A DNA stretch of 60,911 bases, filler included, from 9 parts of 9 records of this genome joined end to end with filler, not necessarily neighbours in it; one strand, 5' to 3'. Counted from the first letter of the whole stretch, positions 4,557 through 21,024 are shown. The notes: generated by a model not told the origin, from the letters alone. Made by a program: numbers and translations.

Positions 4557-6386
4557 ATGTCCGGCTGGATGGGTAAGGTATTACGGGTTAATCTGACCAC
4601 TGGTGTAATAAAAGACGAAGCCCTTGATCCGAAAGTCGCCAAGGACTTTATCGGCGGCCGTGGTCTGGGCGTATACTACCTTTTAAAAGAAATGGCCCCC
4701 GGGTGCGACCCATTGTCTCCTGAAAACATAATGGTTATGGCTACAGGTCCCCTGACCGGGACCAAGGCTCCAACCGGCGCCCGTTACATGGTCGTGACCA
4801 AGTCGCCTCTTACCGGTGCTATCACCTGTTCAAACTCGGGAGGGTTTTTTCCGACCCACTTTAAAAGAACCGGTTTCGACGCCTTTATTTTCGAAGGGAA
4901 ATCTCCGCATCCGGTATACCTGTATGTTGAAGACGGCCGGGCCGAATTACGCCCGTCCGATCATCTGGCCGGTAAAACAACCCACGAAACAGATGACCTG
5001 ATCCGGGCCGAAACCGATGAAAAAGTAAAAATAGCCTGTATCGGTCCGGCCGGCGAAAAGGGCGTTCTATTCGCTTCCATCATGAACGACAGGGACCGCG
5101 CCGCGGGGCGTTCCGGCGTGGGCGCGGTTATGGGTTCAAAAAATCTCAAGGCCGTGGCCGTCAGAGGAACCCAAAGCATACCCCTTCACGATGAGAACAG
5201 ATTCAATGAATATTGTGGCGAAATAGTCGGCGCCTTCAAGGACGCAGCAAAAATCAATCCTCCTTCCCTGAGAATCAACGGCACTGCCGGCGTAGTGGCC
5301 GTCACCCAGAGCTTCGGAGTATTGCCGACCAAAAACTGGCAGCAAGGGGTGTTCGAACACTGGGAATCCATACATGGGGAAACCCTGACCAAAACATACC
5401 TGGTCAGTAATAAAGCTTGTTTTTCGTGCCCAATCGCTTGCGGCCGAGTGACAAAAGTGGAAGTCCCCGGGTTCGAAGGGGAAGGGGAGGGGCCTGAATA
5501 CGAAACAATTTACGCCCTCGGGTCCAACTGCTGCGTGGGCAGCCTGGCCGCTGTCGCCAAGGCCAATTACGTCTGTAATGAACTAGGGCTCGATACCATA
5601 ACCATGGGCGCGACCATTGCCTGCGCCATGGAAATGTATGAAAAAGGAATAATTACCGAAGAAGAAATTGGCCGCCCGCTTAATTTCGGCGATGCCGAAG
5701 GTCTTGTGGAAATGACCCGTCTTACCGGTCTGCGCCAGGGATTCGGCGATATGCTCGCCCTGGGCAGCAAGCGACTGGCCGAGCATTACGGCCGCCCGGA
5801 CCTGGCCATGCATGCCAAGGGACAGGAATTCCCCGGTTATGAACCCAGAGGTGAACAGGGAATGGGCCTGGCCTACGCCACTTCCCCAATAGGCGGCTCC
5901 CACATGAGGGGCGATCCGGCCTATTTCGAACTTTTCGGCATTCCAGAACCAATGGATCCGCATTCCTGGGAAGATAAACCCCCCGTGGTGGCCAAATGGC
6001 AGGATCTTTCCGCTATTATAGATTCCGCGGGCCTGTGCATTTTTTTCGCCACCCGCAGTCTCATCCGGCCCAAGTTGACCGCCGAACCGGAAGGAATACT
6101 CAATTTACTCAACCTGGCAACAGGCGCCGAATACAGCCTGGATGAGCTTGAAAAAGCAGGGGAACGCATCTTTAACGCGGAGCGACTCTTTTTGAACCGG
6201 GCTGGTTTTTCACGACAACAAGACGCCCTGCCGGATCGACTCACCAGGGAGCCCATGCCCGAAGGCCCGTCAAAAGGCATGGTCTGCCACCTGGAAGAAA
6301 TGCTCGACCCCTATTACAATGTCAGGGGCTGGAACAGCCAGGGCGCTCCGACCGAACAGAAACTCAATCAGTTGGGGCTGGCCTGA
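4557..6386 (+). CDS. aor: Tungsten-dependent aldehyde:ferredoxin oxidoreductase (AOR family)
   Basis: KSPLTG, IGPAGE, GRSGVGAVMGSKNLKA, CFSCPIAC and DSAGLC Fe-S ligands, GPEYET, YEPRG. Confidence 0.93.
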   Translation: MSGWMGKVLRVNLTTGVIKDEALDPKVAKDFIGGRGLGVYYLLKEMAPGCDPLSPENIMVMATGPLTGTKAPTGARYMVVTKSPLTGAITCSNSGGFFPTHFKRTGFDAFIFEGKSPHPVYLYVEDGRAELRPSDHLAGKTTHETDDLIRAETDEKVKIACIGPAGEKGVLFASIMNDRDRAAGRSGVGAVMGSKNLKAVAVRGTQSIPLHDENRFNEYCGEIVGAFKDAAKINPPSLRINGTAGVVAVTQSFGVLPTKNWQQGVFEHWESIHGETLTKTYLVSNKACFSCPIACGRVTKVEVPGFEGEGEGPEYETIYALGSNCCVGSLAAVAKANYVCNELGLDTITMGATIACAMEMYEKGIITEEEIGRPLNFGDAEGLVEMTRLTGLRQGFGDMLALGSKRLAEHYGRPDLAMHAKGQEFPGYEPRGEQGMGLAYATSPIGGSHMRGDPAYFELFGIPEPMDPHSWEDKPPVVAKWQDLSAIIDSAGLCIFFATRSLIRPKLTAEPEGILNLLNLATGAEYSLDELEKAGERIFNAERLFLNRAGFSRQQDALPDRLTREPMPEGPSKGMVCHLEEMLDPYYNVRGWNSQGAPTEQKLNQLGLA

Positions 6387-6389
6387 AAA

Positions 6390-6623
6390 ATGCTTATAGA
6401 CGTCCGGTTATTGTTTCATCTGCGCAAATATGCAGGCCATGATTCAGGCCGGACGTCCCTTGAATTACCGGAAGGCGCAACCATCGACCATTTAAAAAAA
6501 ATATTGGCCATTCCGGATACTCAAAAAACAACCGTCCTGGTCAACGGGCGGCGCGCTGTCGAAGGACGCGTCCTTGAAAACAACGACCAAATAACCTTTT
6601 TCCCGCCTGTTGACGGCGGCTGA
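6390..6623 (+). CDS. MoaD/ThiS family sulfur carrier
   Basis: 77 aa ubiquitin-like protein ending FPPVDGG, directly after aor. Confidence 0.9.
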   Translation: MLIDVRLLFHLRKYAGHDSGRTSLELPEGATIDHLKKILAIPDTQKTTVLVNGRRAVEGRVLENNDQITFFPPVDGG

Positions 6624-6754
6624 ACCATTTCCTCACCCAAATTCCATTATCAGTTGACAGCATCCGAATAGAATACTATTAGTCTTATTTTTGTAATGGA
6701 CAATCCCTTGTCCATAATCACATCTTCTGCAAAAATAATGTCGGGAGAATTATA

Positions 6755-7447
6755 ATGGCCGATTACTACGAATATAAAAAAGAAGTATTGGAATACGCCC
6801 GCAAATTATCATCCCAGGGATTTTTCGGAACCGCAACCGGCACGGGCGGCAATGTGTCCCTGCGCATCGACGGTGCAGACGCTGTCGCGGTTACTCCTTC
6901 AAGTCTTAAATACGACGAAATAACTCCGGATGACATCTGTATCGTCAACAGCGACTTTGAACTCATCGAAGGACCGCACAATCCTTCCGTTGAAACCAAA
7001 ATGCATCTGGCCGTATATAAACACAGGCTGGACGCGAATGCGGTTATTCACACCCATCAGATCAACGCAAGCGTGTTCACCCTCATTAACAAGGGCATTC
7101 CCGCACTATTTGATGAAGCCGCCCTGGCCATGGGTCCGGAAGCCGAAATCGTTCCCTACGCCTTGTCAGGCAGCCCTGAACTGATCGACAACCTGGTCGC
7201 CAAGCTCGATAATCGCTGCAGCAGCTACCTGCTGCAAAATCACGGCGTCGTGTCCCTGGGCGTCGACCTGGCCAAGGCATATCATTGCACCGAATTGTTG
7301 GAAAAAACAGCCAAAATCTATTTGGCGGCTCTTGCAACAGGTCAAGAAGTCACTACTCTGCCCGGCGATATGGTCGACCTTCTTTTTCTTATACTTAAAA
7401 GTGAACAGGACAAGGAAATAGCCAGAAAAAAAGGCGAAACCGCCTGA
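6755..7447 (+). CDS. Class II aldolase/adducin family protein (FucA-like)
   Basis: GGNVS, TPSS, PSVETKMH, HTH and QNHG zinc-binding motifs. Confidence 0.9.
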   Translation: MADYYEYKKEVLEYARKLSSQGFFGTATGTGGNVSLRIDGADAVAVTPSSLKYDEITPDDICIVNSDFELIEGPHNPSVETKMHLAVYKHRLDANAVIHTHQINASVFTLINKGIPALFDEAALAMGPEAEIVPYALSGSPELIDNLVAKLDNRCSSYLLQNHGVVSLGVDLAKAYHCTELLEKTAKIYLAALATGQEVTTLPGDMVDLLFLILKSEQDKEIARKKGETA

Positions 7448-7486
7448 CAGGCTTCGCCCTGATTATAATATTTTATTAATGGCGCC

Positions 7487-7521
7487 GGGGAACGGGATTA
7501 AGTGATTCTTCCCTGTTCCCC
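7487..7521. terminator. Possible hairpin terminator between convergent genes
   Basis: GGGGAACGGGA...TCCCTGTTCCCC stem with one bulge. Confidence 0.35.
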
Positions 7522-7522
7522 C

Positions 7523-8110
7523 TTACTTGTTCTTCCCTTTACCTTTACCCTTGCCTTTGCTTTTCGTCTTTTTCTTGTTAACTTTAGATTTTTTCCAGTC
7601 GTCATTCTTGTTCTTGTGGCCCACGCCTAATGAACCGGGATGCATGCCCATTTCCTTGGCGATAACTCCCCAGCCTTTTCCGGTTTTCCTCAGTTCCCTT
7701 ATTTTCGAAGGTTCAACTCCCAGGTTTTGGGCCGAAACCTCAACCCTGGCCGCTTCGAGTTTTATCTCCAGGTTTTCCAGGTTCTTGACCGCCTCTTCTA
7801 TTTTCTCCGCCTTTTCTCCGATCCTCTTCATTTCATCAATGGCTTCCCTGGCTTTTACAACTTCCTTGAGAACCGGTTCCACGGCCTTGTCAATAACTGC
7901 GTCGACAGGGTCGAGAATATCAGTGTCCACGGAAACGCTGACCCCGGCGGCCAATGCATTAAATGACATTGAGATAAAAAAGAAAAAAATACCAATGGCT
8001 GTAAAAGCCTTAATCACGCCGACTAATTTAATATTACTATTATTCATCACAACCAGGGCCTCCTCGGATTGTTCATGTTTTAATAATACTCCAATCACAT
8101 ACGACTTCAA
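7523..8110 (-). CDS. Exported/membrane-anchored hypothetical protein with GWGVIAKEMGMHPG motif and Lys-rich tail
   Basis: Hydrophobic signal ending ALA, coiled-coil core, basic KGKGKG C-terminus. True start may be downstream (MNNSN...). Confidence 0.65.
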   Translation of the reverse strand: MKSYVIGVLLKHEQSEEALVVMNNSNIKLVGVIKAFTAIGIFFFFISMSFNALAAGVSVSVDTDILDPVDAVIDKAVEPVLKEVVKAREAIDEMKRIGEKAEKIEEAVKNLENLEIKLEAARVEVSAQNLGVEPSKIRELRKTGKGWGVIAKEMGMHPGSLGVGHKNKNDDWKKSKVNKKKTKSKGKGKGKGKNK

Positions 8111-8338
8111 CGCATGGTCACTTGAAAACAGTCTAAAGTCATGAGAGTAACAGCAGCTTCAAGCCGTCGGCGCTCAATTCCGGTTAGCCGCTTGTCTGTT
8201 AAACCCATGAAATTGAAATCCGAATCTAAGATCATTTTGCTTCATTCGTAAAATTAATATCATGATATGTTATCATCCGGTAGGAATTGTAAATGAATAT
8301 GATGAGGAATAATTTTGTAATGTCATCAAGGAGGACAT

Positions 8339-8695
8339 ATGCGCAGCTATCTAAAAATCCTTATTATCTCTCTGGGGTTGGCATTACTTATCTCGCCAAT
8401 CGCCATGGCCATGGACGCGGAAAAAATCAAGGAAGAAAAAAGGCCTGTTATCGGTAAGATCCTGATTGAGTTTGACGAAAGCGTAAATACGGAGAGCGTT
8501 TATATAATCGAAGCCAAAACCGGAAAAAAAATATGGCTGGAAATGTTGCGTGAAATTAAAGGCGACTTTAAGAACTTTTTACAAAAGGCCTCTAAAAGCG
8601 GCAAAAATGTAAAACTGACCGGCGTTGTTGAATATTGGACGGACGGGATGGTTATGAGGCCGTCGAGGGTCGTTAAATACGAAGTAATAAAGTAA
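8339..8695 (+). CDS. Small exported hypothetical protein
   Basis: Strong AAGGAGGA RBS; signal peptide MRSYLKILIISLGLALLISPIAMA. Confidence 0.75.
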   Translation: MRSYLKILIISLGLALLISPIAMAMDAEKIKEEKRPVIGKILIEFDESVNTESVYIIEAKTGKKIWLEMLREIKGDFKNFLQKASKSGKNVKLTGVVEYWTDGMVMRPSRVVKYEVIK

Positions 8696-8710
8696 AAAGA
8701 CGGATATAAT

Positions 8711-9037
8711 TCAGGCTTTGCCCGAAATAGCCTTCTGAGCCGCTTCCCTGACATATTCGTCAGCGTCTGATTCAGCCGCTTTTTCCAATATGGGCAAAGC
8801 CTTCTTGCTCCCCATCTCGCCCAATACTTCGGCTGCTCTTTCCCTGACCATGGGGTGCTCGTCATTTTGAAGAGCATCAATAAGAAATTCAACAGATTTT
8901 GTCGGTTCAATCCTGTTCATATCGTCAATAATCATAGTCCGGATGTTCCATTGATGGTCTGTTTTCAAAGCCTTGAGCAGCGCCTCATACGCTGTTGGGT
9001 TTTTGCCATGCACCGCCATTTCAATCAAGGCTTTGCA
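8711..9037 (-). CDS. HEAT/PBS-lyase repeat protein, 5'-truncated
   Basis: Repeats such as VRERAAEVLGEMG and VREAAQKAI; frame is open to the contig edge. Confidence 0.8.
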   Translation of the reverse strand, partial: CKALIEMAVHGKNPTAYEALLKALKTDHQWNIRTMIIDDMNRIEPTKSVEFLIDALQNDEHPMVRERAAEVLGEMGSKKALPILEKAAESDADEYVREAAQKAISGKA

Positions 9038-9137
9038 NNNNNNNNNNNNNNNNNNNNNNNNNNNNNNNNNNNNNNNNNNNNTTAATTAATTAANNNNNNN
9101 NNNNNNNNNNNNNNNNNNNNNNNNNNNNNNNNNNNNN
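9038..9137. other. Artificial contig spacer
   Basis: 44 N + TTAATTAATTAA (stops in six frames) + 44 N. Confidence 0.99.
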
Positions 9138-9169
9138 TCCTCGAACCAGTAGATCCATTTTGATTCCAT
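9138..9169 (-). CDS. First codons (MESKWIYWFE) of a probable PEP/pyruvate-binding (PpsB-like) subunit, truncated
   Basis: ATG at 9169 after purine-rich GGAGAAAGGG. The WIYWFE start resembles PEP-synthase nucleotide-binding domains, and it lies directly downstream of the PpsA-like gene. Confidence 0.6.
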
Positions 9170-9233
9170 GCGGATCAAACCCTTTCTCCGTCGGAGCGGC
9201 CGCCCCGAAAGCCGCCCCGGCAATTTTCCGCTT

Positions 9234-10913
9234 CTAACCAGTAATATAGACAACGCCCAAGTTGGCGTCGACTTTGATCTTCTGACCGGATTTGATCTTG
9301 GCGGTTCCCTCGAACACATTCATGACGACCGGGATGCCGTATTCCCTGCCCACGATTGCCGCGTGGGAAAGGCTGGCTCCACGATCCACAACAACGCCCT
9401 GGATCATGGAAAAGACCGGCGTCCAGCTCGGGGAGGTGCTGGCCGCTACCAGGATATCCCCTTCCTGAACAAGATGGAGTTCATCCTCGGTCATGATAAC
9501 ACGCGCGGTTCCTTCAGCCACACCAGGCGAACCGCAGGTGCCGTACAGGTCGGCTTTGAGTTCGGGCCGCACTTCCGGCATCGAGCCTACTACCACCTTG
9601 AGAGCGATTGGGTCCATGGATTGGACCAACACTCCCATGGCCTGGTCCATATCAAAGCCGTCAGCCAGAATAGCCGGCGGGTTTGGCTCTTTTTGCCATT
9701 CGAGCCATTCTTCCCTACGACGATTCACGATGTACCTGAGGTCGAACTGGTCCGGGTTGATGCCCGCGCGCCGGATCTCGTCAGGGATCAGGAAAAAGAT
9801 ATCCTCATGATGGTCCAGGGCCCCATTCTCAACGAACCGGCGACCCAGGCCGAGGGCGCTGCGCCGCATCATGGCGTGGGTGTACAGGTCCAGGTAGTGA
9901 TCGTGCTCCTCGCTGAAAATGCCGCTTTTCTGGGCCAGCCTTAAAAGTTGTTCGAACCAGGCTTGCTGGTCCTGGGGAACCTTGGCCAGAACCTCTTTTT
10001 CCGCCTCCTCCCTCTTCTGCGTAAGCCGGGACCTTTCGACGTCCAGGTTGAAATCTCCGCCCTTTTGCAGAAATTGCTTCACGCTGACCAGTGCGGGCGT
10101 GGGATCCTCAACCCAGGTGGGCAGATTGATCTCGCTCATTCGCTGCATGCGCCAGCCGTCCTCATTCATGAAGTCCATAAAATCCTTCATGAAGGCCTGC
10201 CCGGCATCCGAAGCTTCAAGCGCAGCTTGAATATCACCGGCCTCGTTGTTAAGGAAAACGTCGGCCAGTCCTTCCTTGTCGGCCCGCTTCGAAAATTCCC
10301 AAATTTTACGATCCACCTGGAAGACCTTGTTGTCGAATCCGGAAACGAGGTTGTGGAACAAGGGCGACGTGTCGTCTATGTCGGCCAGCGAACGGCACAT
10401 GTTTTCAAATAGAATGTACGCCGTGTACGTGCCGTACATCATGTACATGTGTATTTCCCACATCCGGCGGCAGGTGTTGATTGTTTCCTCGAAGTTGTCC
10501 AGAAGCTCAATTCCTGTTGCAGTGTCCATATCCAATTCTTTCAGCTTCTCGTACCTAGCCAGGATTTCCTCTACAAAGCCGTTCCAGAGCCCTTCGTAAT
10601 CCTGTATAAAGGGCATGATGGCCTTGCGGAAACGCTCTTCGCGGCGTTGCTTTTCCTCCTCGGACTTGACCAGAAGCAGGGTCAGGTAGCCCCCGCCCTT
10701 GTGGAACCTCCAGTCCCAACCTTTAACCGTGGGCAGGCTCAATGTTTCCGCGCCGTATTGCATTCCATGGCGGCAGAAATTGATCCAGAACCAACCGAAC
10801 ATTGGCGTCCATGGCGGCACGGAATGGGTGCCGTCCAGGAACCAGGCCGGTGATTGGGCCAGGTCCCTTTCGGGATCGAACTCCAGCCCGGGAACCACAT
10901 CATAAACTTTCAT
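9234..10913 (-). CDS. PEP-utilizing phospho-His enzyme, phenylphosphate synthase alpha (PpsA)-like
   Basis: C-terminal mobile domain (SPGVAEGTARVI, TSPSWTP, SHAAIVGREYGIP) and WFLDGTH N-terminal motif; no ATP-grasp domain; AAGGAGGAGG RBS. Confidence 0.85.
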   Translation of the reverse strand: MKVYDVVPGLEFDPERDLAQSPAWFLDGTHSVPPWTPMFGWFWINFCRHGMQYGAETLSLPTVKGWDWRFHKGGGYLTLLLVKSEEEKQRREERFRKAIMPFIQDYEGLWNGFVEEILARYEKLKELDMDTATGIELLDNFEETINTCRRMWEIHMYMMYGTYTAYILFENMCRSLADIDDTSPLFHNLVSGFDNKVFQVDRKIWEFSKRADKEGLADVFLNNEAGDIQAALEASDAGQAFMKDFMDFMNEDGWRMQRMSEINLPTWVEDPTPALVSVKQFLQKGGDFNLDVERSRLTQKREEAEKEVLAKVPQDQQAWFEQLLRLAQKSGIFSEEHDHYLDLYTHAMMRRSALGLGRRFVENGALDHHEDIFFLIPDEIRRAGINPDQFDLRYIVNRRREEWLEWQKEPNPPAILADGFDMDQAMGVLVQSMDPIALKVVVGSMPEVRPELKADLYGTCGSPGVAEGTARVIMTEDELHLVQEGDILVAASTSPSWTPVFSMIQGVVVDRGASLSHAAIVGREYGIPVVMNVFEGTAKIKSGQKIKVDANLGVVYITG

Positions 10914-11059
10914 TTTCCTCCTCCTTCCCCGTAAATGGCGGATAGGCAGCGGGCGACCATCCGATCAAACGGCCTCCCATTTTTGATAAAAACCCCTATT
11001 ATCGATACGCCTTGATCCGATCCTGTCGGGCCGGACGAATTTTCGCCCCGCAAAACCGA

Positions 11060-12886
11060 TTACTCCTGATCTTCCGCCTCATCGAGCCTCAAGTTCCTTA
11101 TTGTTCCTGGTTCCGGGATGCCATTAGAATCGTATCCCAAGGCCTTGTAATACTCGTCCAGTAAGCCGTCAAGGTTTTCCACAACGCAGCCTTCAGCCGG
11201 TCCTGCGTTTTTCAATGGTTCGGAAGTCAGGCGTTCAGGGAGGGCGTCATCCGCGCGGGTAAAACCTTCCCGAACGTTGAAAAGACGTTCCAGGCACATG
11301 ATCCGCTCCCCGATCCTTAGCATCTCGTCCGGCCCGTCAAAGCCTTCGATCCCCGTCCCGGCGGTAACGGCCTCGGCATAGAACGACATATCCAAGCCGG
11401 TATTGGAAAAGGTACAGGCCACCAGGCTGTCTTCCACGGCCTGCTCCTTTTGTACTTCCGCCACGGCGGCGCCTTTGTTCGTTTCCGAGTACGGGTCCAC
11501 CTTGCCGGACAGTTCGTCTCTTGGACGACCGTACATATGGCTTCCGCCTATGTTACTGACAGCCATGCTCAGGGCGTACCCTTTGACTCCCCGGGGGTCG
11601 TATCCCGGCAGCTCCAGCCCCTTGATATGCATGGCCATGCGTCCAGCCCCTCGCCCGATTCGTTCGGCTGCGATTTTTACGCCTTCCCCGAGCAGTTCGC
11701 CCGCGCCTTCCCGACGGCCGATTTTATCGATCAGGGAGAACGCGGCGTCGACGTCGCCCCATACCGGTTCTATTCCATCGAGATCTCCGGCGGAAAAAAT
11801 TCCCTTTTCGAACAGCTCGAAAGCGAAGGCCAGGCAGACGCCGGTACTGATGGCGTCAAGACCGTGGTAGTCACAGAGTGCATTGGCATCCACCACGAAT
11901 TGAGGATCGGAGATTCCTAAAAGCGGCCCAAAGGAGTAGATGGATTCATACTCCGGGCCGTCGATTTCGGATCCGCCAAACGGCCCGCGCCCCACCTCGC
12001 GCAAACCGCCGCAACGGGTCATGCAGCCGAAACACCCGGTCCTGGCTTTCTTGAGCTTCAGAAATTCCTCCCCGGCTATTTTTTCAATGCCCGCCAAACG
12101 ACCTTCCTGGAAATTTTTTACCGGCAGTATACCCAGCCCGTCGACCACGGTGGTGATGTAGGGCGTTCCCAAAGTGTTCATGTTTTTCCGGCGTGGATGG
12201 TCCCGGAGTATTCCAACCTGGCGCCGAATCAGGTCCTTGAACTGTTCCGGGCGGGCGGGCCGGGGGGAGGCCACCATTGTATCGATGGAGACGGCCTTGA
12301 GATTCTTGGATCCCATGACCGTGCCCATGCCGCCCCGGGAAGCGGTTCTCTCCCCCGAAGTGATCACGGCGTACCTCACGCCCTTTTCGCCGGCCGGTCC
12401 GATACAAGCCGAAGCTGTCCGGGGGCCGTGGCTGCTTTTGAGCGCCTCTTGCAGGCGCCTGTGATCCAGGCCCCACAAGTCCCGGGCGTCCAGGAAACGC
12501 ACCCCCGACTCGTCCACATGCACGTATACGGGTTGATCGGCCCGCCCCTCAATAATCATCAGGTCGTACCCGGCGTACTTCATCCAAACGCCGAAATCGC
12601 CCCCGGCAAAAGAGCGGAAAATGGACCCGGTCAGCGGGCTCTTGGACATGGCGGCCCACTTGGAAAATCCTTGCATTCCCGTGCCGCCCAAAGCGCCGGT
12701 CAGGAAAATTAATTTGTTTTCCGGACCCAGCGGATCCAAACCCGGGGCAAGCTCGTCGTATAAAAATTTCGCCCCAAGACCGCGCGCCGACAGGAACCGC
12801 CGGTAACTATCGGCAGGCACATCCTCCACCGCAGCGGACCGTCGCCCCAGATCTATCCTCAGGGCCCGGCCCGTAAGAATGCTCAT
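11060..12886 (-). CDS. aor: Aldehyde:ferredoxin oxidoreductase (AOR family)
   Basis: KSPLTG, IGPAGE, GMGTVMGSKNLKA, CFGCMTRC, GPEYES, GYDPRG, DSLVAC. Confidence 0.92.
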   Translation of the reverse strand: MSILTGRALRIDLGRRSAAVEDVPADSYRRFLSARGLGAKFLYDELAPGLDPLGPENKLIFLTGALGGTGMQGFSKWAAMSKSPLTGSIFRSFAGGDFGVWMKYAGYDLMIIEGRADQPVYVHVDESGVRFLDARDLWGLDHRRLQEALKSSHGPRTASACIGPAGEKGVRYAVITSGERTASRGGMGTVMGSKNLKAVSIDTMVASPRPARPEQFKDLIRRQVGILRDHPRRKNMNTLGTPYITTVVDGLGILPVKNFQEGRLAGIEKIAGEEFLKLKKARTGCFGCMTRCGGLREVGRGPFGGSEIDGPEYESIYSFGPLLGISDPQFVVDANALCDYHGLDAISTGVCLAFAFELFEKGIFSAGDLDGIEPVWGDVDAAFSLIDKIGRREGAGELLGEGVKIAAERIGRGAGRMAMHIKGLELPGYDPRGVKGYALSMAVSNIGGSHMYGRPRDELSGKVDPYSETNKGAAVAEVQKEQAVEDSLVACTFSNTGLDMSFYAEAVTAGTGIEGFDGPDEMLRIGERIMCLERLFNVREGFTRADDALPERLTSEPLKNAGPAEGCVVENLDGLLDEYYKALGYDSNGIPEPGTIRNLRLDEAEDQE

Positions 12887-13518
12887 GGCTTGCCTCCGCC
12901 ACCGATGTGTCCGGATGGCGCCAAGGCCTTACAGCCGTATCCGGAGACAAGGCGTAAAAGCTTGAGCGTCGCCCTCTGGTAGACTTCGCTTTCCAGCATT
13001 CGCCCCAGGCTTTCCGGATCGCCGGTTCGGGCTTCGATGATTACGTTGGGTGTGGCGCCTATGGCTACTGACCAAACCCCGACGATTTCCAGCCCGAAGC
13101 GCTCGAGAGTGGGGATGTGCTCGCTTTGAGAAAAAGCAAGGTATTCGTAATAGTCCGCCGAGTTCACATTGAAGTGTTGTGTGAATTTAAATCCTCGCTC
13201 CACTTCGACCACAGACGGTTCAATTTCACCGAAAGGCGCCAACAGTTTGGTTGCGTAATCACAAACCATAGCCTTCAGGCTGCGTCGTAACTCCAGAAAG
13301 AAGGCGCCGCCGATCAGGGACTCCACCCGGGCCAGGGAATCCGCTGTCCCCTCGGCGATGAACGAGGGGCCTTCCCCTGAAGCCACGGACCAGGACCCGA
13401 CCATCCTCATCAGGCCGGACTCGTTAATTTCAGGCACAAATCGTCCGGTGAAAAAGTCGTCGAATGCGTCACGGCTTGCTTCTTTCACGTTCCAATACTG
13501 GAGAAACTTGACCGACAT
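12883..13518 (-). CDS. Hypothetical protein with two NIPSNAP-like (dimeric alpha-beta barrel) repeats
   Basis: Internal duplication (KFLQYWNV...GSWSVASGEGP / KFTQHFNV...GVWSVAIGATP); paralog of the next gene; 4-bp overlap with aor. Confidence 0.7.
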   Translation of the reverse strand: MSVKFLQYWNVKEASRDAFDDFFTGRFVPEINESGLMRMVGSWSVASGEGPSFIAEGTADSLARVESLIGGAFFLELRRSLKAMVCDYATKLLAPFGEIEPSVVEVERGFKFTQHFNVNSADYYEYLAFSQSEHIPTLERFGLEIVGVWSVAIGATPNVIIEARTGDPESLGRMLESEVYQRATLKLLRLVSGYGCKALAPSGHIGGGGKP

Positions 13519-13524
13519 ATCGCC

Positions 13525-14142
13525 TCAGTCCTCAACCAAAGCAGGGGAAAGAATTTTACTGCCGAAACCACTGACCAGAGTAAACATCTCACGTATCATC
13601 CCCTGGTACTCCGGGCTTGCAATGTTTCTCATAATCCGGGCGATGCCGTCGGAAGCGCCCTCAATAACAAAACCCGGACCCGGGCCCACCGCCTCCTCCC
13701 AGGCGCCGATGACATCTATTCCTGCGTCTTTCATAAGAGGAAGATAAGTTTCGCTGAAAAAACGTTCAAATTCATCACGGGCGTCGGCGCCAACTTCAAA
13801 GTGGTGATTAAATCTGAAATGTCGTCCTTGGGGCCGGCGAGCTTCGACGAGTCCGCTTTGAAGGAGCATTTTGGACTTGTAATTGGTGACCAGGAAATGA
13901 AGCAGCCGGTTAAGCTTAACAAAGTCGTCCAACTCGAGCAGACGGTGGACTCGGCCGACGGATTCGGCAGCGCTTTCGAAAATGCAATACGGTCCTTCAC
14001 CGCAGGCCACATACCAGGCCCCTATCGGCTGCACCAATCCGATATCCCGAAGCGTCGGGAAGTAGCTTTCCAGGGAGAAACTCCGGAATTCCTCCTCCTG
14101 TCCGGAAACCACGTCGAAATATTGGATAAATTTGACCGTCAT
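13525..14142 (-). CDS. Hypothetical protein with two NIPSNAP-like repeats (paralog)
   Basis: KFIQYFDV...GAWYVACGEGP / RFNHHFEV...GAWEEAVGPGP. Confidence 0.7.
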   Translation of the reverse strand: MTVKFIQYFDVVSGQEEEFRSFSLESYFPTLRDIGLVQPIGAWYVACGEGPYCIFESAAESVGRVHRLLELDDFVKLNRLLHFLVTNYKSKMLLQSGLVEARRPQGRHFRFNHHFEVGADARDEFERFFSETYLPLMKDAGIDVIGAWEEAVGPGPGFVIEGASDGIARIMRNIASPEYQGMIREMFTLVSGFGSKILSPALVED

Positions 14143-14164
14143 ATCCCTACCTTGCTCGCCTTCG

Positions 14165-14570
14165 TTAATGCATGGCCCGGCCTCCGTCCACCAGCAGGGT
14201 CTGCCCGGTGATAAAATCGCTTTCTCCGGAGACTAAAAACACGGCCGCCCCTGTCAAGTCGTCAGGGCGCTCAAGTCTTCCAAGCGGAGTTTTCGAGGTA
14301 TCGTATTTACTGACGTCGGCCAGGTTGCGGCTGGCTTCCGTGTCCGTGAATCCCGGCGCCAGACAATTCACGCAGATGTTGTGTGATCCCAACTCAACGG
14401 CCAGGGCGCGGGTGAGGCCGATGATTCCGCCTTTGGAAGCCACGTAGTGCACAAATCCGTGGGAACCGGTAAAAAAAACTTCCGAGGCCAGGTTAAGAAT
14501 CTTCCCGCCGCCCTGTTTTTGCATTGTCGGGAAGACGGCCCGGGAGGCCAGAAAAGCGCCTTTTACATTC
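14165..14570 (-). CDS. SDR family oxidoreductase, 5'-truncated
   Basis: YVASKGG catalytic YxxxK, NCLAPG, FITGQTLLVDGG. Confidence 0.92.
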
Positions 14571-17326: not shown

Positions 17327-18208
17327 CTACAGATTTAAAAACGCTTTGGCATTCAGGCCTAAAATCTTTTCGATTTCAGCACCGCTTAATTGGGGCAGGT
17401 TTTGACTGTCCAAAATATTATTTATAGTGGTTTTAATCATGGGCGTGTAATCCGCCTGCTTCAAACACGGGTAATCCGTACCGTACATTATACGATCAAG
17501 CATCCCGAATTCCCTGGCCCGATGGAGATTCATAGCCAGGTCATTCGGCCTGACGCCCAGGGCGGCTATATCGGCATAAATGTTTTTATTGTTGCGCATC
17601 AGGCCCATTAGCTGATTTTCCCAGGGATAGGCCATATGGGCCGCGCAGATTTTCAAGTCCGGAAAATCCTTGGCCACATCGTCCAGATGGCCTGGATTGC
17701 CGCATTCAAACCTGGCCGGACCGAAACTTGTAGTGCCCATATGAAGCAAAACAGGAACGTTCCGCTCCACGCAAATCTGGTAAAAAGGGTACATTCGCTT
17801 ATCATTTGGAGCAAAATGACAATAGCTGGGATTGGATTTGAGCCCCTTAAACCCTAAGTCGTCCAAGGCGTGCTTAAAGTCATTGATTTTTTGCTGGCAT
17901 AAAAACCCGTGTTCATCAAAAGGCTGGACGCCGGCGAATCCAATGAACTTATCAGGGTAAGGCTTGACGTACTCATTATATATATAGTCCGAATCTATCC
18001 TGGTGCCGAAATTAAAAGCCGTTATATCCATGCCCAGGATAACCATCTTGTCGACGCCGGCCTCGGCCATGTCTTCAAGAATAGCGTCCCTTTTTATGGT
18101 CCACATTTCGTGGGGATCCTGACCGAAGGCGCCGCCGATTATCCGCGCGAACTTTTCCGAATAGTGAGTCAGGTACTCCCCGACGTGACCATGGATATCT
18201 ATGATCAT
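17327..18208 (-). CDS. Amidohydrolase family protein (Amidohydro_2)
   Basis: IIDIHGH, LLHMG, AHMAYPW, YGTDYP; 4-bp overlap with the Mo subunit gene. Confidence 0.9.
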   Translation of the reverse strand: MIIDIHGHVGEYLTHYSEKFARIIGGAFGQDPHEMWTIKRDAILEDMAEAGVDKMVILGMDITAFNFGTRIDSDYIYNEYVKPYPDKFIGFAGVQPFDEHGFLCQQKINDFKHALDDLGFKGLKSNPSYCHFAPNDKRMYPFYQICVERNVPVLLHMGTTSFGPARFECGNPGHLDDVAKDFPDLKICAAHMAYPWENQLMGLMRNNKNIYADIAALGVRPNDLAMNLHRAREFGMLDRIMYGTDYPCLKQADYTPMIKTTINNILDSQNLPQLSGAEIEKILGLNAKAFLNL

Positions 18209-21024
18209 TTCTTCTCCTTGTGAATTTTCTTGTAAATTTCTTCAAATGTGAGGGGCAGCTTATGAAATTCCCGGTTCGAGGCCTCGGCTACGGCATTGGC
18301 CAGTGCCGCGGGCGTGGCGATTAAAGGATTTTCAGCCACGCCCTTTGCGCCGAACGGACCTGTGGGTTCATTCGATTCCACCAGTAGCGCCTTGAGTCCC
18401 GGGATATCCATGGATGTGGCTATTTTATAGTCTTCCATGCCGATATTTCTAACCAGGCCGTCCTTGACGGCCATGTCTTCCAGGGCTCCCAACCCAAGTC
18501 CCATGATCGCGGCGCCCTCTATCTGACCCCGGCAAAGATCGGGATTAATGGCAAAGCCGCAATCTGAAGCGGAAATAATATCCAACACTTCATAAGCGCC
18601 TGTCTGGGTGTCCAGCTTGATTACAACGCCGGTAATGTTGTAAAGAAATGCGCCGGCAATGGAACCCAGGTTTGTTTCAGGCTCCCTCACCGTACCCTTA
18701 TGGTCGTAATAGCCCGATGCAAACACCGGCTCATACTTGGAATTGGTCAGGGAAAGAATAGACAGATCGTGCAGGCTGATGCATTTTTCTGGGTTGTTTT
18801 TTACAAAAATCCGGCTGGATTTAATATCCATATCTTCAGTATCCACGTCCAGATAATCTGCGGCCATGGCCTTGATTTTTTCCTTGGCCCTGGAAGCGGC
18901 AATGCGTGCGGCCATGCCTCCGATCATCAATGACCGGCTGGAATAAGCGCCCTGGCCGAATGGGACAACGTCCGTATCACCCTGGATAACCGTAACGTCG
19001 CAAAAATTAACGCCTATCTCCTCGGCTATAATTTGGGCCATGCCGGTCAGGTTGCCCGTCCCGTGATCCGTCTCTCCGGTAAAAGCCCGTATTTTGCCGT
19101 CATTGTCCAGTTTTAAAAAGCAGGATGAAGGGTCTGTATTGACAAGACCCATATGATTTTCAAAACCCGCCTTCCAACCGCTGCCGTGGGGGCCTATGGC
19201 CAGGCCCCGCCCGATTCTGTACCTGCCGTCATCCGTGTAGGCGTCTTCATATTTTTTCCACTCGGGCGACGAGTCGATCGCATGCAGGCACTCTTTCAGG
19301 CCGCAGCTTTGCAACACCCAGTCGAAAGGCAGCCTGTAACCTGTCTCCACGACATTTTTCAGGCGAATTTCAAAAGGGGTCATACCAACTCTGGCCGCCA
19401 ATAAGTCCATGTGGGATTCGACGGCAAATGTCTGCTGAGGGCCGCCGAATCCCCTCATGGACCCGCCAACGGGGGAGTTGGTGTACATTGTGAAACCTTC
19501 GTACTTGATGTTGGGAATTTTATATACCGCGCAAAAGAAATTCCCGGCCCACTGAACGACTGTATCTCCGGAATCGACGTAAGCCCCGGTATTGGCATAC
19601 AACTTCAGATGCCTGGCCGTGACTGTCCCGTCTTTATTTATCCCGGATTTGATATACATTACGGCCGGGTGCCTGATGGTTGAAGCCATGGCCTCTTCGG
19701 TCCGGGTGTGCATATACCTGACGCTGCTCAGTATCCCCGCCTTTTTAGCCAGCGCCGCGGTAATAATCAACGACTGGACCTTGGCTTTGCCGCCAAAGTC
19801 TCCGCCCAATCCGTCCACAATGAGCCGGACTCTTTTCTGGTCGATACCCAAAGCGCCCGCCATCATTACCTTGGCCCCGAATTTCACGTGGGTGCTGGCC
19901 CAGCAGGTAAAGGATCCGTCGGATTCGTACCGGACCACGTTAGCCTCGGTTTCCAGTGGGGCATGCTCCTGGGGGCCGATCTCGTACCTTGTCTCCAAAA
20001 CAAAATCCGATTCGGCCAAGGCTTTTTCCACATCGCCATGGTCTTCAACCCTTACCGATGCAATATTGCCCTGCTCGTGAACCAGCGGCGCATCTTCAAG
20101 AGAAGCCTCTTCAGGGTTGAAAACCGCCGGTAAATCTTCAAACTCAATCTCGATCAGGTCTACAGCCTTCTCGGCAATTTCCTCCGTGGTTGCAGCCACG
20201 GCCGCAATTGCTTCTCCATAAAAGCGAACTTTGTCTCTGGCCAAGGGATAACGATCGGCAATGGTATACCCTGTTTTGGCGTTTTCGCCAAAATCATCCG
20301 CCGTGATCACCGCCCTTACGCCCTCAAGATTTTCCGCTTCACTAGTATCAATGGATTTAATCAGAGCGTGGGCCCTGGGGCTTCTTAAAACCTTTGCCCT
20401 GAGCATATTGGGAAGATAAACATCAGAAGGATATTTAAGCTGCCCGGTTACTTTTTGGCTGGAAGTAATACTCGGAAAAGATTTACCTAACGGCGAAAAC
20501 TCCTTTTGATCGCCTGTTTCGTCATTTCTTGCTCTTTTGGGTTTTTCATTCCCGCCGGCGGCGGTCTCTACCGCATCAATAATTTTCTTATACCCGGTGC
20601 ACCTGCATAGAACTCCAGAAAGACCTTCCTTTATTTCTTCTTCATTGGGATTCGGATTATTCTTTAGAAGACCTTTGGTGGACATGATCATACCGGGCGT
20701 ACAAAATCCGCACTGGACCGCGTGGGAGTCAATGAAGCTTTCCTGGACCGGGTCCAGCTTTTCACCACTGGAAAGCCCTTCAATGGTCTGGATGCTCTTG
20801 CCTTCCAGGGTGCGGGCCAAAAGAAGACACGCCAGCATAGGCTTGTCGTCTATGAGCACGGTGCAGGCGCCGCACTGCCCCTGGCCGCAGCCTTCCTTGG
20901 TTCCGGTGTAACCAAGTTCCTCCCTTAACACCTCCAGAAGAGTTGCGGACGGTTTTACCCGAACATTGATTTTTTGCCCGTTTATATTCAGTGTTATCGA
21001 TTTGTCCCTGTTCTCAAATTCCAT
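18205..21024 (-). CDS. Xanthine dehydrogenase-family molybdoenzyme, fused 2x[2Fe-2S] and Mo-binding subunits
   Basis: GCGQGQCGAC, QCGFCTPG, CRCTGY, then QEHAPLE, GGDFGGK, MRGFGGPQ, AYSSRS, GAKGVAE. Confidence 0.93.
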   Translation of the reverse strand: MEFENRDKSITLNINGQKINVRVKPSATLLEVLREELGYTGTKEGCGQGQCGACTVLIDDKPMLACLLLARTLEGKSIQTIEGLSSGEKLDPVQESFIDSHAVQCGFCTPGMIMSTKGLLKNNPNPNEEEIKEGLSGVLCRCTGYKKIIDAVETAAGGNEKPKRARNDETGDQKEFSPLGKSFPSITSSQKVTGQLKYPSDVYLPNMLRAKVLRSPRAHALIKSIDTSEAENLEGVRAVITADDFGENAKTGYTIADRYPLARDKVRFYGEAIAAVAATTEEIAEKAVDLIEIEFEDLPAVFNPEEASLEDAPLVHEQGNIASVRVEDHGDVEKALAESDFVLETRYEIGPQEHAPLETEANVVRYESDGSFTCWASTHVKFGAKVMMAGALGIDQKRVRLIVDGLGGDFGGKAKVQSLIITAALAKKAGILSSVRYMHTRTEEAMASTIRHPAVMYIKSGINKDGTVTARHLKLYANTGAYVDSGDTVVQWAGNFFCAVYKIPNIKYEGFTMYTNSPVGGSMRGFGGPQQTFAVESHMDLLAARVGMTPFEIRLKNVVETGYRLPFDWVLQSCGLKECLHAIDSSPEWKKYEDAYTDDGRYRIGRGLAIGPHGSGWKAGFENHMGLVNTDPSSCFLKLDNDGKIRAFTGETDHGTGNLTGMAQIIAEEIGVNFCDVTVIQGDTDVVPFGQGAYSSRSLMIGGMAARIAASRAKEKIKAMAADYLDVDTEDMDIKSSRIFVKNNPEKCISLHDLSILSLTNSKYEPVFASGYYDHKGTVREPETNLGSIAGAFLYNITGVVIKLDTQTGAYEVLDIISASDCGFAINPDLCRGQIEGAAIMGLGLGALEDMAVKDGLVRNIGMEDYKIATSMDIPGLKALLVESNEPTGPFGAKGVAENPLIATPAALANAVAEASNREFHKLPLTFEEIYKKIHKEKK

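Follow-up and report, generated by a model that had tools for sequence, protein, structure and literature searches.

Anaerobic activation of alkylphenols has two textbook routes, flavocytochrome methyl-hydroxylases and fumarate addition. In the aerobic Cre (4-cresol) pathway of Corynebacterium glutamicum, a phosphate is put on by the kinase CreHI, the side chain is taken to the acid by the CreJEF P450 system, the alcohol dehydrogenase CreG and the aldehyde dehydrogenase CreC, and the phosphate is taken off by the phosphohydrolase CreD. Related two-component dikinases are the phenylphosphate synthase PpsABC of the anaerobes Thauera and Aromatoleum, which comes with the CBS protein PpsC and a UbiD/UbiX carboxylase module, and the hydroxyphenylethanone kinases HpeHI/AcvAB, which phosphorylate ahead of side-chain chemistry in pathways where a biotin enzyme carboxylates the phosphorylated ketone and the phosphatase is of the NagD type (PMC12167813, PMC9618137). 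PpsA, CreH and HpeH share about 43-45% identity among themselves. We have analysed a locus encoding a divergent relative of these kinases, here called PpsA'. It lies in a sequence of 60,911 nt (the window), which consists of at least nine contigs of a metagenome-assembled genome (MAG) joined through N44-TTAATTAATTAA-N44 spacers; positions 9138-14570 are exactly one contig, 5,433 bp, end to end. We propose that this contig preserves part of a catabolic operon which is conserved among anaerobes and works as an equivalent of the Cre pathway without oxygen; we consider the proposal evenly balanced between right and wrong.

Every gene of the contig is carried by the minus strand. From the upstream end they are:

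14165-14570, minus strand: SDR-family dehydrogenase, C-terminal 134 aa only (PF13561, 1.2e-32; PF00106, 3.8e-23)
13525-14142, minus strand: tandem alpha+beta-barrel (dimeric alpha+beta barrel, DABB) protein 1, 205 aa, fold predicted by an AlphaFold2 (AF2) model
12883-13518, minus strand: tandem alpha+beta-barrel (DABB) protein 2, 211 aa, a paralogue of barrel protein 1
11060-12886, minus strand: aldehyde:ferredoxin oxidoreductase (AOR) of the tungsten-pterin family, 608 aa (AFOR_N, 4e-69; AFOR_C, 9e-114)
9234-10913, minus strand: PpsA', the PpsA-like alpha subunit of a two-component small-molecule dikinase, 559 aa (PF00391, 5.5e-22)
9138-9169, minus strand: start of PpsB', a PpsB-like ATP-grasp beta subunit, 10 codons (MESKWIYWFE), with the ATG at 9169 and the gene cut by the contig end

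The coding regions overlap or almost touch, the stop of the barrel protein 2 gene overlapping the AOR start by 4 nt, and the upstream contig end cuts the SDR gene, whose N-terminus is missing. The initial annotation had described co-oriented genes for an SDR, two paralogous barrel proteins, an AOR and a 559-aa phospho-His enzyme lacking its own ATP domain, followed by a PpsB-like gene starting MESKWIYWFE. All of these are there: the sole Pfam domain of the 559-aa protein is the phosphoenolpyruvate (PEP)-utilizers swivel domain (residues 483-553), and the orthologues of the interrupted gene encode 342-aa PPDK_N ATP-grasp proteins (PF01326, 5e-83) with N-termini of the form M..(K/Q)W(I)(Y/F)WF.

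PpsA' consists of an N-terminal substrate-binding domain and the C-terminal phospho-His swivel domain. The phosphocarrier His517 sits in GASLSHAAIVGRE and is invariant among 52 aligned sequences; a Ser precedes it, the same Ser-His as in PpsA and CreH, whereas HpeH has Cys-His (PMC12167813). The protein aligns over its full length to the NCBIfam PRK08296 models, far under their cut-offs (222 vs 578 bits). Its AF2 model has a predicted local distance difference test (pLDDT) value of 93.7, and the top Foldseek matches are rifampin phosphotransferase (RPH) structures (5fbt/5fbu/5hv1) over about 580 columns with template-modelling (TM) scores of 0.64-0.68; other dikinases match through the swivel domain alone. 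On this model the N-terminal domain is predicted to have the fold of the rifampin-binding domain, and the model of HpeH is likewise composed of a RIF-binding-like domain and a swivel domain (PMC12167813). RPH (5fbt, 5hv1), although the best structural match across the whole of PpsA' and similar in its swivelling phospho-His mechanism, is one fused chain with its own ATP-grasp domain, shares 18% identity and serves antibiotic resistance rather than catabolism. By analogy, PpsA' and PpsB' would carry out ATP-dependent phosphorylation of a small molecule, releasing AMP and inorganic phosphate (Pi). PpsB' would bind ATP, PpsA' would become phosphorylated on His517, and the phosphate would pass from there to the hydroxyl of a small, most likely phenolic, substrate in the N-terminal domain. 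We draw the step in this way because phosphotransfer through phospho-His has been so described for PpsAB and HpeHI (PMC12167813).

Scanning prokaryotes with a single genome for each species, we obtained 188 relatives of the 559-aa protein, and the best 80 loci were analysed. Most come from Desulfobacterota MAGs; six are alphaproteobacterial and one is from Anaerolineales. Open reading frames (ORFs) were called and clustered, clusters were named via Pfam and NCBIfam, and presence was scored by tblastn with cluster representatives; components were counted in the 54 loci that span 15 kb or more. PpsA' identity across the 80 loci has a median of 83% (range 66-86%). The PpsB' gene adjoins that of PpsA' in 74 of the 80, and the PPDK_N ATP-grasp partner is present, and adjacent, in 54/54 long loci. 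A tandem-barrel protein was found in 48/54, a CrtI-family (CtmAB-type) flavoprotein in 47 (two copies in 26) and an SDR in 45. Aldehyde oxidisers of any kind occur in 50/54 (tungsten AOR in 31, Mo aldehyde oxidoreductase in 15, NAD-dependent aldehyde dehydrogenase (NAD-ALDH) in 6), HD or DUF89 phosphatases in 43/54 (HD 30, DUF89 17), and an electron transfer flavoprotein (ETF) with a membrane Fe-S/CCG oxidoreductase in about 20/54. Where there was room for it (68 loci), a gene for a 219-aa barrel protein lies at most 400 bp downstream of PpsB' in 61. The gene set is thus conserved together, and the coupling to alcohol and aldehyde redox enzymes that the initial annotation had put forward is real and is strengthened by the interchangeability of tungsten AOR, Mo enzyme and NAD-ALDH. 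The slot of the aldehyde oxidiser is filled by three unrelated enzymes and that of the phosphatase by two, likewise unrelated, which argues for an aldehyde intermediate and for a phosphate group put on and subsequently taken off.

The exact order of the contig, SDR-barrel-barrel-AOR-PpsA'-PpsB', recurs in eight of the 80 loci (L004, L005, L009, L010, L013, L018, L022, L023), so the co-orientation of the contig genes is not chance. The full order in these window-like loci is LysR, followed by flavoprotein - 86-aa protein - flavoprotein - SDR - barrel - barrel - AOR - PpsA' - PpsB' - barrel - DUF89. Because the eight same-order loci show this longer arrangement, the contig holds only the central part of an operon that is larger; the operon variant with twin barrel proteins and an AOR upstream of the kinase is the gene order of the window. 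DUF89 is carried by five of the eight (L004, L005, L009, L013, L022). Seven of them have no HD phosphatase, and L023 has one, upstream and on the opposite strand. Identity between the contig and the eight loci is 83-86% for PpsA', 84-88% for the SDR (in the six that hold that stretch), 63-67% for the AOR and 46-55% for the barrel proteins (48-55% for barrel protein 2). Since conservation differs so much from gene to gene, the kinase is under unusually strong constraint and the block is not merely a recent transfer as a whole. That functionally unrelated genes came to lie side by side by accident might be argued from the shortness of the contig and from the differing GC content of the MAG contigs. 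Against this, the 54 long loci, from at least three phyla, show these neighbours again and again, and the coding regions overlap or almost touch on one strand; we find accidental adjacency hardly credible.

We then compared the kinase with two reference loci, the ppsA-ppsB-CBS(ppsC)-ppcBDAG-UbiD-UbiX region of an Azoarcus sp. KH32C plasmid (L081) and the Cre-type plasmid cluster of Rhodococcus ruber (L082). PpsA' shares 26.8% identity with Azoarcus PpsA and 26.6% with the Rhodococcus CreH-like protein, whereas those two proteins have 43% in common. For PpsB' the values are 36.6% to Azoarcus PpsB and 36.9% to the CreI-like protein, against 51% between those two. A library search with PpsA' gave 794 cluster representatives at E<=1e-30, and the best 150 of the 794 (at least 195 bits) all outscore the BLAST scores of PpsA (177 bits) and CreH (160 bits). 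A 99%-identical protein is encoded on a contig of 32 kb, and one UniRef name indicates a homologue in Desulfomonile tiedjei. Kinase trees were built with FastTree (123 rows) and IQ-TREE in quick mode (42 rows). In both, PpsA, CreH and the true PpsA paralogues of L021, L024 and L083 form one clade with support of 100, while the clade of the window's PpsA' (support 97-99) is nested in another clade, of unnamed proteins (99 in IQ-TREE, 83 in FastTree). The two share a two-component clade (support 98-99), apart from the fused RPH-like proteins. PpsA' is a member of the two-component RPH-like small-molecule dikinases (the PpsAB/CreHI/HpeHI subfamily) and is, as the initial annotation had held, divergent; it does not cluster with PpsA.

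These results bear on the simplest alternative, an ordinary phenylphosphate synthase for phenol carboxylation whose UbiD-type carboxylase is encoded elsewhere. The two systems do share the alpha/beta split, the alpha-then-beta order, the Ser-His phosphocarrier and anaerobic hosts; UbiD-family (PpcB-like) genes are present in the analysed flanks of 4/80 loci, with UbiX-like genes in two more, and a CBS protein 37% identical to Azoarcus PpsC occurs in 6/54 loci, though not adjacent to the kinase pair. However, both subunits lie far from their Pps counterparts and PpsA' falls in a separate clade. L024, L021 and the genome G001 carry a true PpsA besides PpsA' (62% and 43% identical to Azoarcus PpsA in L024 and L021, respectively). 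The third gene of the operon encodes a barrel protein and not a CBS protein, and the operon is coupled to alcohol and aldehyde oxidation where PpsABC has its UbiD/UbiX module. The initial annotation had named carboxylase genes just beyond the contig edge as evidence against its reading, and none of the eight window-order loci has a UbiD-family gene in its analysed flanks; three window-order genomes searched whole have 1-2 UbiD genes each, none next to the operon. We regard phenylphosphate synthase as a most improbable identity for this enzyme.

Kinase gene copies with other arrangements were also seen. L056 and L059 (Desulfatiglandales) have two tandem PpsA'-type genes at about 6100-11700, the upstream copy belonging to a sister clade (41% identity), and a 526-aa PpsB-type ORF precedes the tandem pair in both. 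One copy (G234:C140:76134-77804, 78% identity), from a genome of the Desulfobacterota sample described below, has four in-frame stops (2 TGA, 1 TAG, 1 TAA) and is probably a pseudogene.

The AOR of the contig can be assigned to the classical AOR family, with a predicted tungsten cofactor and predicted aldehyde oxidation. Its best solved relatives are the classical enzymes 9g7j (378 bits) and 1aor (368 bits), and a C-x2-C-x3-C motif plus a later Cys line up with cysteines of 1aor that we take to be the Fe-S cluster ligands. An assignment to the BamB-type AORs of benzoyl-CoA reductase was rejected, as BamB (4z3w) reaches 185 bits over the N-terminal part only, against 378 for the classical enzyme. 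In L029, L040 and L056 the AOR gene comes after one for an HdrA-like flavoprotein of 1,016 aa, and its stop lies in a 4-nt overlap with a 122-aa ORF; in L016 this ORF is fused to the AOR (726 aa). Selenocysteine read-through from the AOR into the 122-aa ORF was considered and rejected, since the ORF is a gene in its own right with the 4-nt overlap just noted.

Tungsten AORs can reduce acids using reduced ferredoxin. The pathway could on that account run in the reductive direction, with the AOR taking an acid to the aldehyde, the SDR taking the aldehyde to the alcohol and the dikinase making a phosphate leaving group for elimination or transfer. The position of the kinase directly downstream of the AOR in window-order operons would suit such a scheme, and the barrel proteins leave room for another role. 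But elsewhere the slot of the tungsten AOR is filled by the oxidatively working NAD-ALDH (6/54) or Mo aldehyde oxidoreductase (15/54), the ETF and membrane Fe-S/CCG oxidoreductase that accompany the flavoprotein in about 20/54 loci fit electron disposal to quinone, and phosphatases are conserved partners. Reduction is in our judgement highly unlikely.

The flavoenzyme is encoded in the relatives and not on the contig. It belongs to the CrtI family (best solved match 4dgk, 1e-8). The motif GFLHNTHA of the first flavoprotein copy is present in 25 of 82 ORFs of the family, and second copies have the variants GFLQNPCAH and GFRQNPHAH. The covalent-flavin motif of CtmAB and delta24-desaturase is G-F-L/R-X-N/S-T/L-H-A (PMC11061730), which GFLHNTHA matches at the level of sequence. 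CtmAB, the limonene dehydrogenase, hydroxylates an allylic methyl group with water, and alcohol and aldehyde dehydrogenases (GeoA and GeoB of Castellaniella) act next (PMC4109377). The operon resembles CtmAB and the sterol delta24-desaturase in its CrtI-family flavoproteins, which are paired in 26/54 long loci, and in their putative covalent-flavin motif, and CtmAB also in the alcohol and aldehyde dehydrogenases that come next. It differs in the partners, which are ETF or an 86-aa protein where CtmAB has the ferredoxin CtmE and the reductase CtmF, and in the setting, a kinase operon of sulfate-reducer relatives. Searched against plasmids, the flavoprotein gave unnamed matches only, at about 27% identity. 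The small protein is encoded between both CtmAB-like genes in 26/54 long loci (e.g. L048 7033-7293 and L005 3377-3799); its core, some 86 aa long (MKVNSTGLGKTTMVAHF...), lacks a Cys motif and is without a match in Pfam, and the protein may be a third flavoenzyme subunit.

Two Rhodococcus plasmid clusters (L082 and L084) served for comparison with Cre, protein identities being taken from L082 alone. Both have the arrangement IclR-P450-CreI-CreH-SDR-Fdx-FdR-HD-ALDH, which mirrors the order and roles of creC-creJ tabulated in PMC7764795. The operon shares with them a two-component dikinase, an SDR, an enzyme for aldehyde oxidation and, in 30 of the 54 long loci, an HD phosphohydrolase, and it would share with Cre the logic of phosphate on, side chain to acid, phosphate off. 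Operon proteins are 34-38% (HD), 46-48% (SDR), 39% (ALDH), 37% (kinase beta) and 27% (kinase alpha) identical to those of L082. The operon HD protein was searched against 72,556 plasmids and gave three matches at E<=1e-8, all inside L082 and L084. A search of the 80 loci with the P450 of L082, on the other hand, gave nothing at E<=1e-5; where Cre has its P450 system the operon would use the CtmAB-type flavoenzyme with ETF. Further differences are that the aldehyde step falls to a tungsten or Mo enzyme in most loci, that window-order operons carry DUF89 instead of HD, that tandem-barrel proteins are added, that the hosts are anaerobes and that the kinase belongs to another clade and is not orthologous to CreHI. 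The operon also has none of the genes that set the HpeHI/AcvAB pathways apart, namely the biotin enzyme and the NagD-type phosphatase.

Links to aromatic metabolism were sought in the neighbourhoods and genomes of the carriers. A MAG labelled Desulfomonile has, immediately before the operon and in the same orientation, a true phenol module (L083 1-5200, G001:C37:229000-234200) that encodes a UbiX-like protein, a 173-aa ORF, PpsA (610 aa), PpsB (362 aa) and a UbiD/PpcB-like protein, with an HcrA/C-like pair (791+160 aa) about 10 kb further upstream. True phenol-module genes also stand beside the operon in L021, L024, L058, L064 and L068. A block of AMP-ligase, UPF0261 protein and CBS-pair protein (the PpsC-like protein mentioned above) is found upstream of LysR in L046, L048, L051, L058, L064 and L068; because in G001 the block runs into the phenol module, it may belong to phenol metabolism rather than to the kinase operon. 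BamA/Oah (TIGR03200) scored over the curated cut-off in 5/5 Desulfobacterota carriers and in 5/5 alphaproteobacterial or Anaerolineales carriers, four of the latter five also holding PobA (4-hydroxybenzoate hydroxylase); none of 14 control genomes reached the cut-off. Among 401 genomes drawn evenly from the phylum Desulfobacterota (kinase clade at >=62% identity, BamA at E<=1e-130), 22 carry the clade (about 5%) and 110 carry BamA. BamA is present in 21/22 carriers and in 89/379 others (Fisher p=6e-12, with no correction for kinship or genome size), and the sole carrier without it is a 1.9-Mb genome.

Several points weigh against an oxygen-free Cre-type pathway for alkylphenols. The flavoenzyme, the phosphatase, the 219-aa barrel protein and all but the start of PpsB' are missing from the contig; we take them to exist because the eight relatives with this gene order have them. 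The 27% identity of PpsA' to those phenol and cresol kinases that have been characterised is too low to fix the class of substrate. The likeness of the operon SDR to that of the Cre-type cluster (48% for the contig SDR) does not discriminate, as generic plasmid SDRs reach 44%. The BamA association leaves kinship and genome size out of account. HcrA (TIGR03194) was over its cut-off in none of five genomes, three window-order genomes scoring 609-624 against 995 bits. By our own reasoning, an O-phosphate should hinder benzylic hydride abstraction. Limonene dehydrogenase has been argued to need a positive-potential acceptor and may fail in sulfate-reducing or methanogenic cells (PMC12583861).

The remaining objections are also what would favour a substrate that is not aromatic, for instance an enolisable ketone or an alcohol of the terpenoid or isoprenoid kind. 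In that case the alcohol or enol would be phosphorylated by the dikinase, the CtmAB-type enzyme would hydroxylate or desaturate an allylic position, as happens when limonene or sterol side chains are degraded, and alcohol-aldehyde-acid steps would follow. All characterised CtmAB/delta24-desaturase enzymes act on isoprenoids (limonene, stigmasterol), and the likeness of the operon flavoproteins to them is one of motif and family. The best NCBIfam match of the operon flavoproteins is the carotenoid ketolase CrtO, an enzyme of allylic oxidation, at 174 bits and far under its cut-off. A geranylgeranyl-reductase-like gene is present in 9/54 loci, the neighbouring AMP-ligase best matches fatty-acid-type ligases, and the kinase-family relatives RPH and, among the NCBIfam matches, PigC/RedH phosphorylate non-phenolic hydroxyls. 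Moreover, BamA-like hydrolases also open monoterpene rings (PMC12583861). On the other side stand the HD phosphatase, which is specifically Cre-cluster-like (3/3 plasmid matches), the grouping of the kinase with PpsA/CreH and not with the fused RPH-like proteins, the phenol-module genes beside the operon and the PobA of four of the five carriers outside Desulfobacterota. We therefore give a non-aromatic substrate a minor but real chance. Among the aromatic, heterocyclic or enolisable substrates that the initial annotation had allowed for ATP-dependent phosphorylation, an aromatic one is tentatively favoured, and heterocyclic and simple enolisable ones are less favoured.

The two barrel proteins of the contig are 33% identical to each other, and barrel protein 1 is 31% identical to the protein of 219 aa encoded after PpsB' in relatives. 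Neither has a Pfam match at E<=0.01 or an NCBIfam match. The AF2 model of barrel protein 1 (pLDDT 92.5) is a tandem ferredoxin-like alpha+beta barrel with two beta-alpha-beta-beta-alpha-alpha-beta halves. The best Foldseek matches were the tandem ABM-type 'putative monooxygenases' 3f44, 3mcs and 2pgc, together with coproheme decarboxylase/chlorite dismutase, at TM scores of about 0.63-0.66 and 10-14% identity. The modelled fold places barrel protein 1 in the dimeric alpha+beta barrel (ferredoxin-like, ABM/Cld-type) superfamily. Of the label 'NIPSNAP-like' given by the initial annotation, the likeness at the level of fold is retained, but neither barrel protein of the window matches Pfam PF07978; their 219-aa paralogue only just clears the cut-off (22.4 over 22.3 bits), and no single stretch of it does so alone. 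Since no His or Cys is invariant in the alignments, a haem or metal site is unlikely. L070 has three barrel genes in a row after PpsB', in place of two upstream of the AOR and one downstream, which suggests that the three paralogues act together.

We infer the chemical steps and the substrate of the proposed oxygen-free pathway from gene content, homologies, conserved synteny and co-occurrence. After phosphorylation of the substrate by PpsA'/PpsB', the CtmAB-type flavoenzyme, encoded just upstream in relatives, would oxidise the alkyl (methyl) side chain to the alcohol, its electrons passing to ETF and the membrane Fe-S oxidoreductase or to the second flavoprotein subunit. The SDR would turn the alcohol into the aldehyde, and the tungsten AOR would turn the aldehyde into the acid, reducing ferredoxin. 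The phosphate would be removed by the DUF89 phosphatase in window-order operons and by the CreD-like HD phosphatase in others, and the hydroxy-aromatic acid would enter the benzoyl-CoA pathway. The three tandem-barrel paralogues, which are peculiar to the clade, would be accessory proteins that bind the substrate or an intermediate or that act as subunits themselves, rather than metal or haem enzymes. In its most specific form the proposal is that of an undescribed third anaerobic attack on cresol-type alkylphenols, in which a dikinase of a new clade, needing a barrel protein as its third component, makes the aryl phosphate, a CtmAB-type/ETF system carries out low-potential, water-dependent oxidation, a tungsten AOR oxidises the aldehyde and gives back electrons of low potential, and the phosphate comes off at the acid stage only. 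This we advance tentatively and with more doubt than confidence.

The other contigs of the 60,911-nt window are without any of the missing operon parts. Their first member carries a second AOR-family gene (609 aa, 4557-6386, plus strand), 39% identical to the operon-type AOR representative. A Mo enzyme of the xanthine-dehydrogenase family (939 aa, 18205-21024, minus strand) is 32% identical to the Mo aldehyde oxidoreductase representative and is surrounded by co-oriented ORFs of 350, 293 and 276 aa. GC content varies between stretches of the window from about 43% to 63%, with 60-63% at 50-61 kb, and the bin behind the joined contigs may therefore be mixed. On the operon contig, scans returned three promoter-like sites (1.9 expected) and 12 terminator-like sites (7.2 expected), none of them convincing.

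Our literature searches brought up neither this cluster nor a Cre-like route in anaerobes. The kinase trees in the supplement of PMC9618137 (Figs S3, S4) might already show the clade; the supplement text has no mention of names beginning with Desulfo or Syntroph, or of alkylphenol. What is newly described here is the separate dikinase clade with its extra protein and the presumed oxygen-independent oxidising enzymes, phosphorylation-initiated side-chain oxidation being known in kind.

The PpsA' clade defines a large uncharacterised branch of small-molecule dikinases, and annotation of these kinase genes as PEP synthase or phenylphosphate synthase should be avoided. The analysis also offers a testable role for an unannotated family of tandem-barrel proteins. 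p-Cresol and other alkylphenols arise wherever protein and lignin decay without oxygen, and the operon is common in sediment and soil relatives of sulfate reducers (188 species-level genomes matched; 22 of 401 sampled across the phylum). If the proposed pathway is correct, it would add a phosphorylation-gated, water-dependent route to the two anaerobic activation routes, and it would bring flavin hydroxylases of the CtmAB type into low-potential metabolism, a setting that a recent paper deems unlikely for them (PMC12583861).

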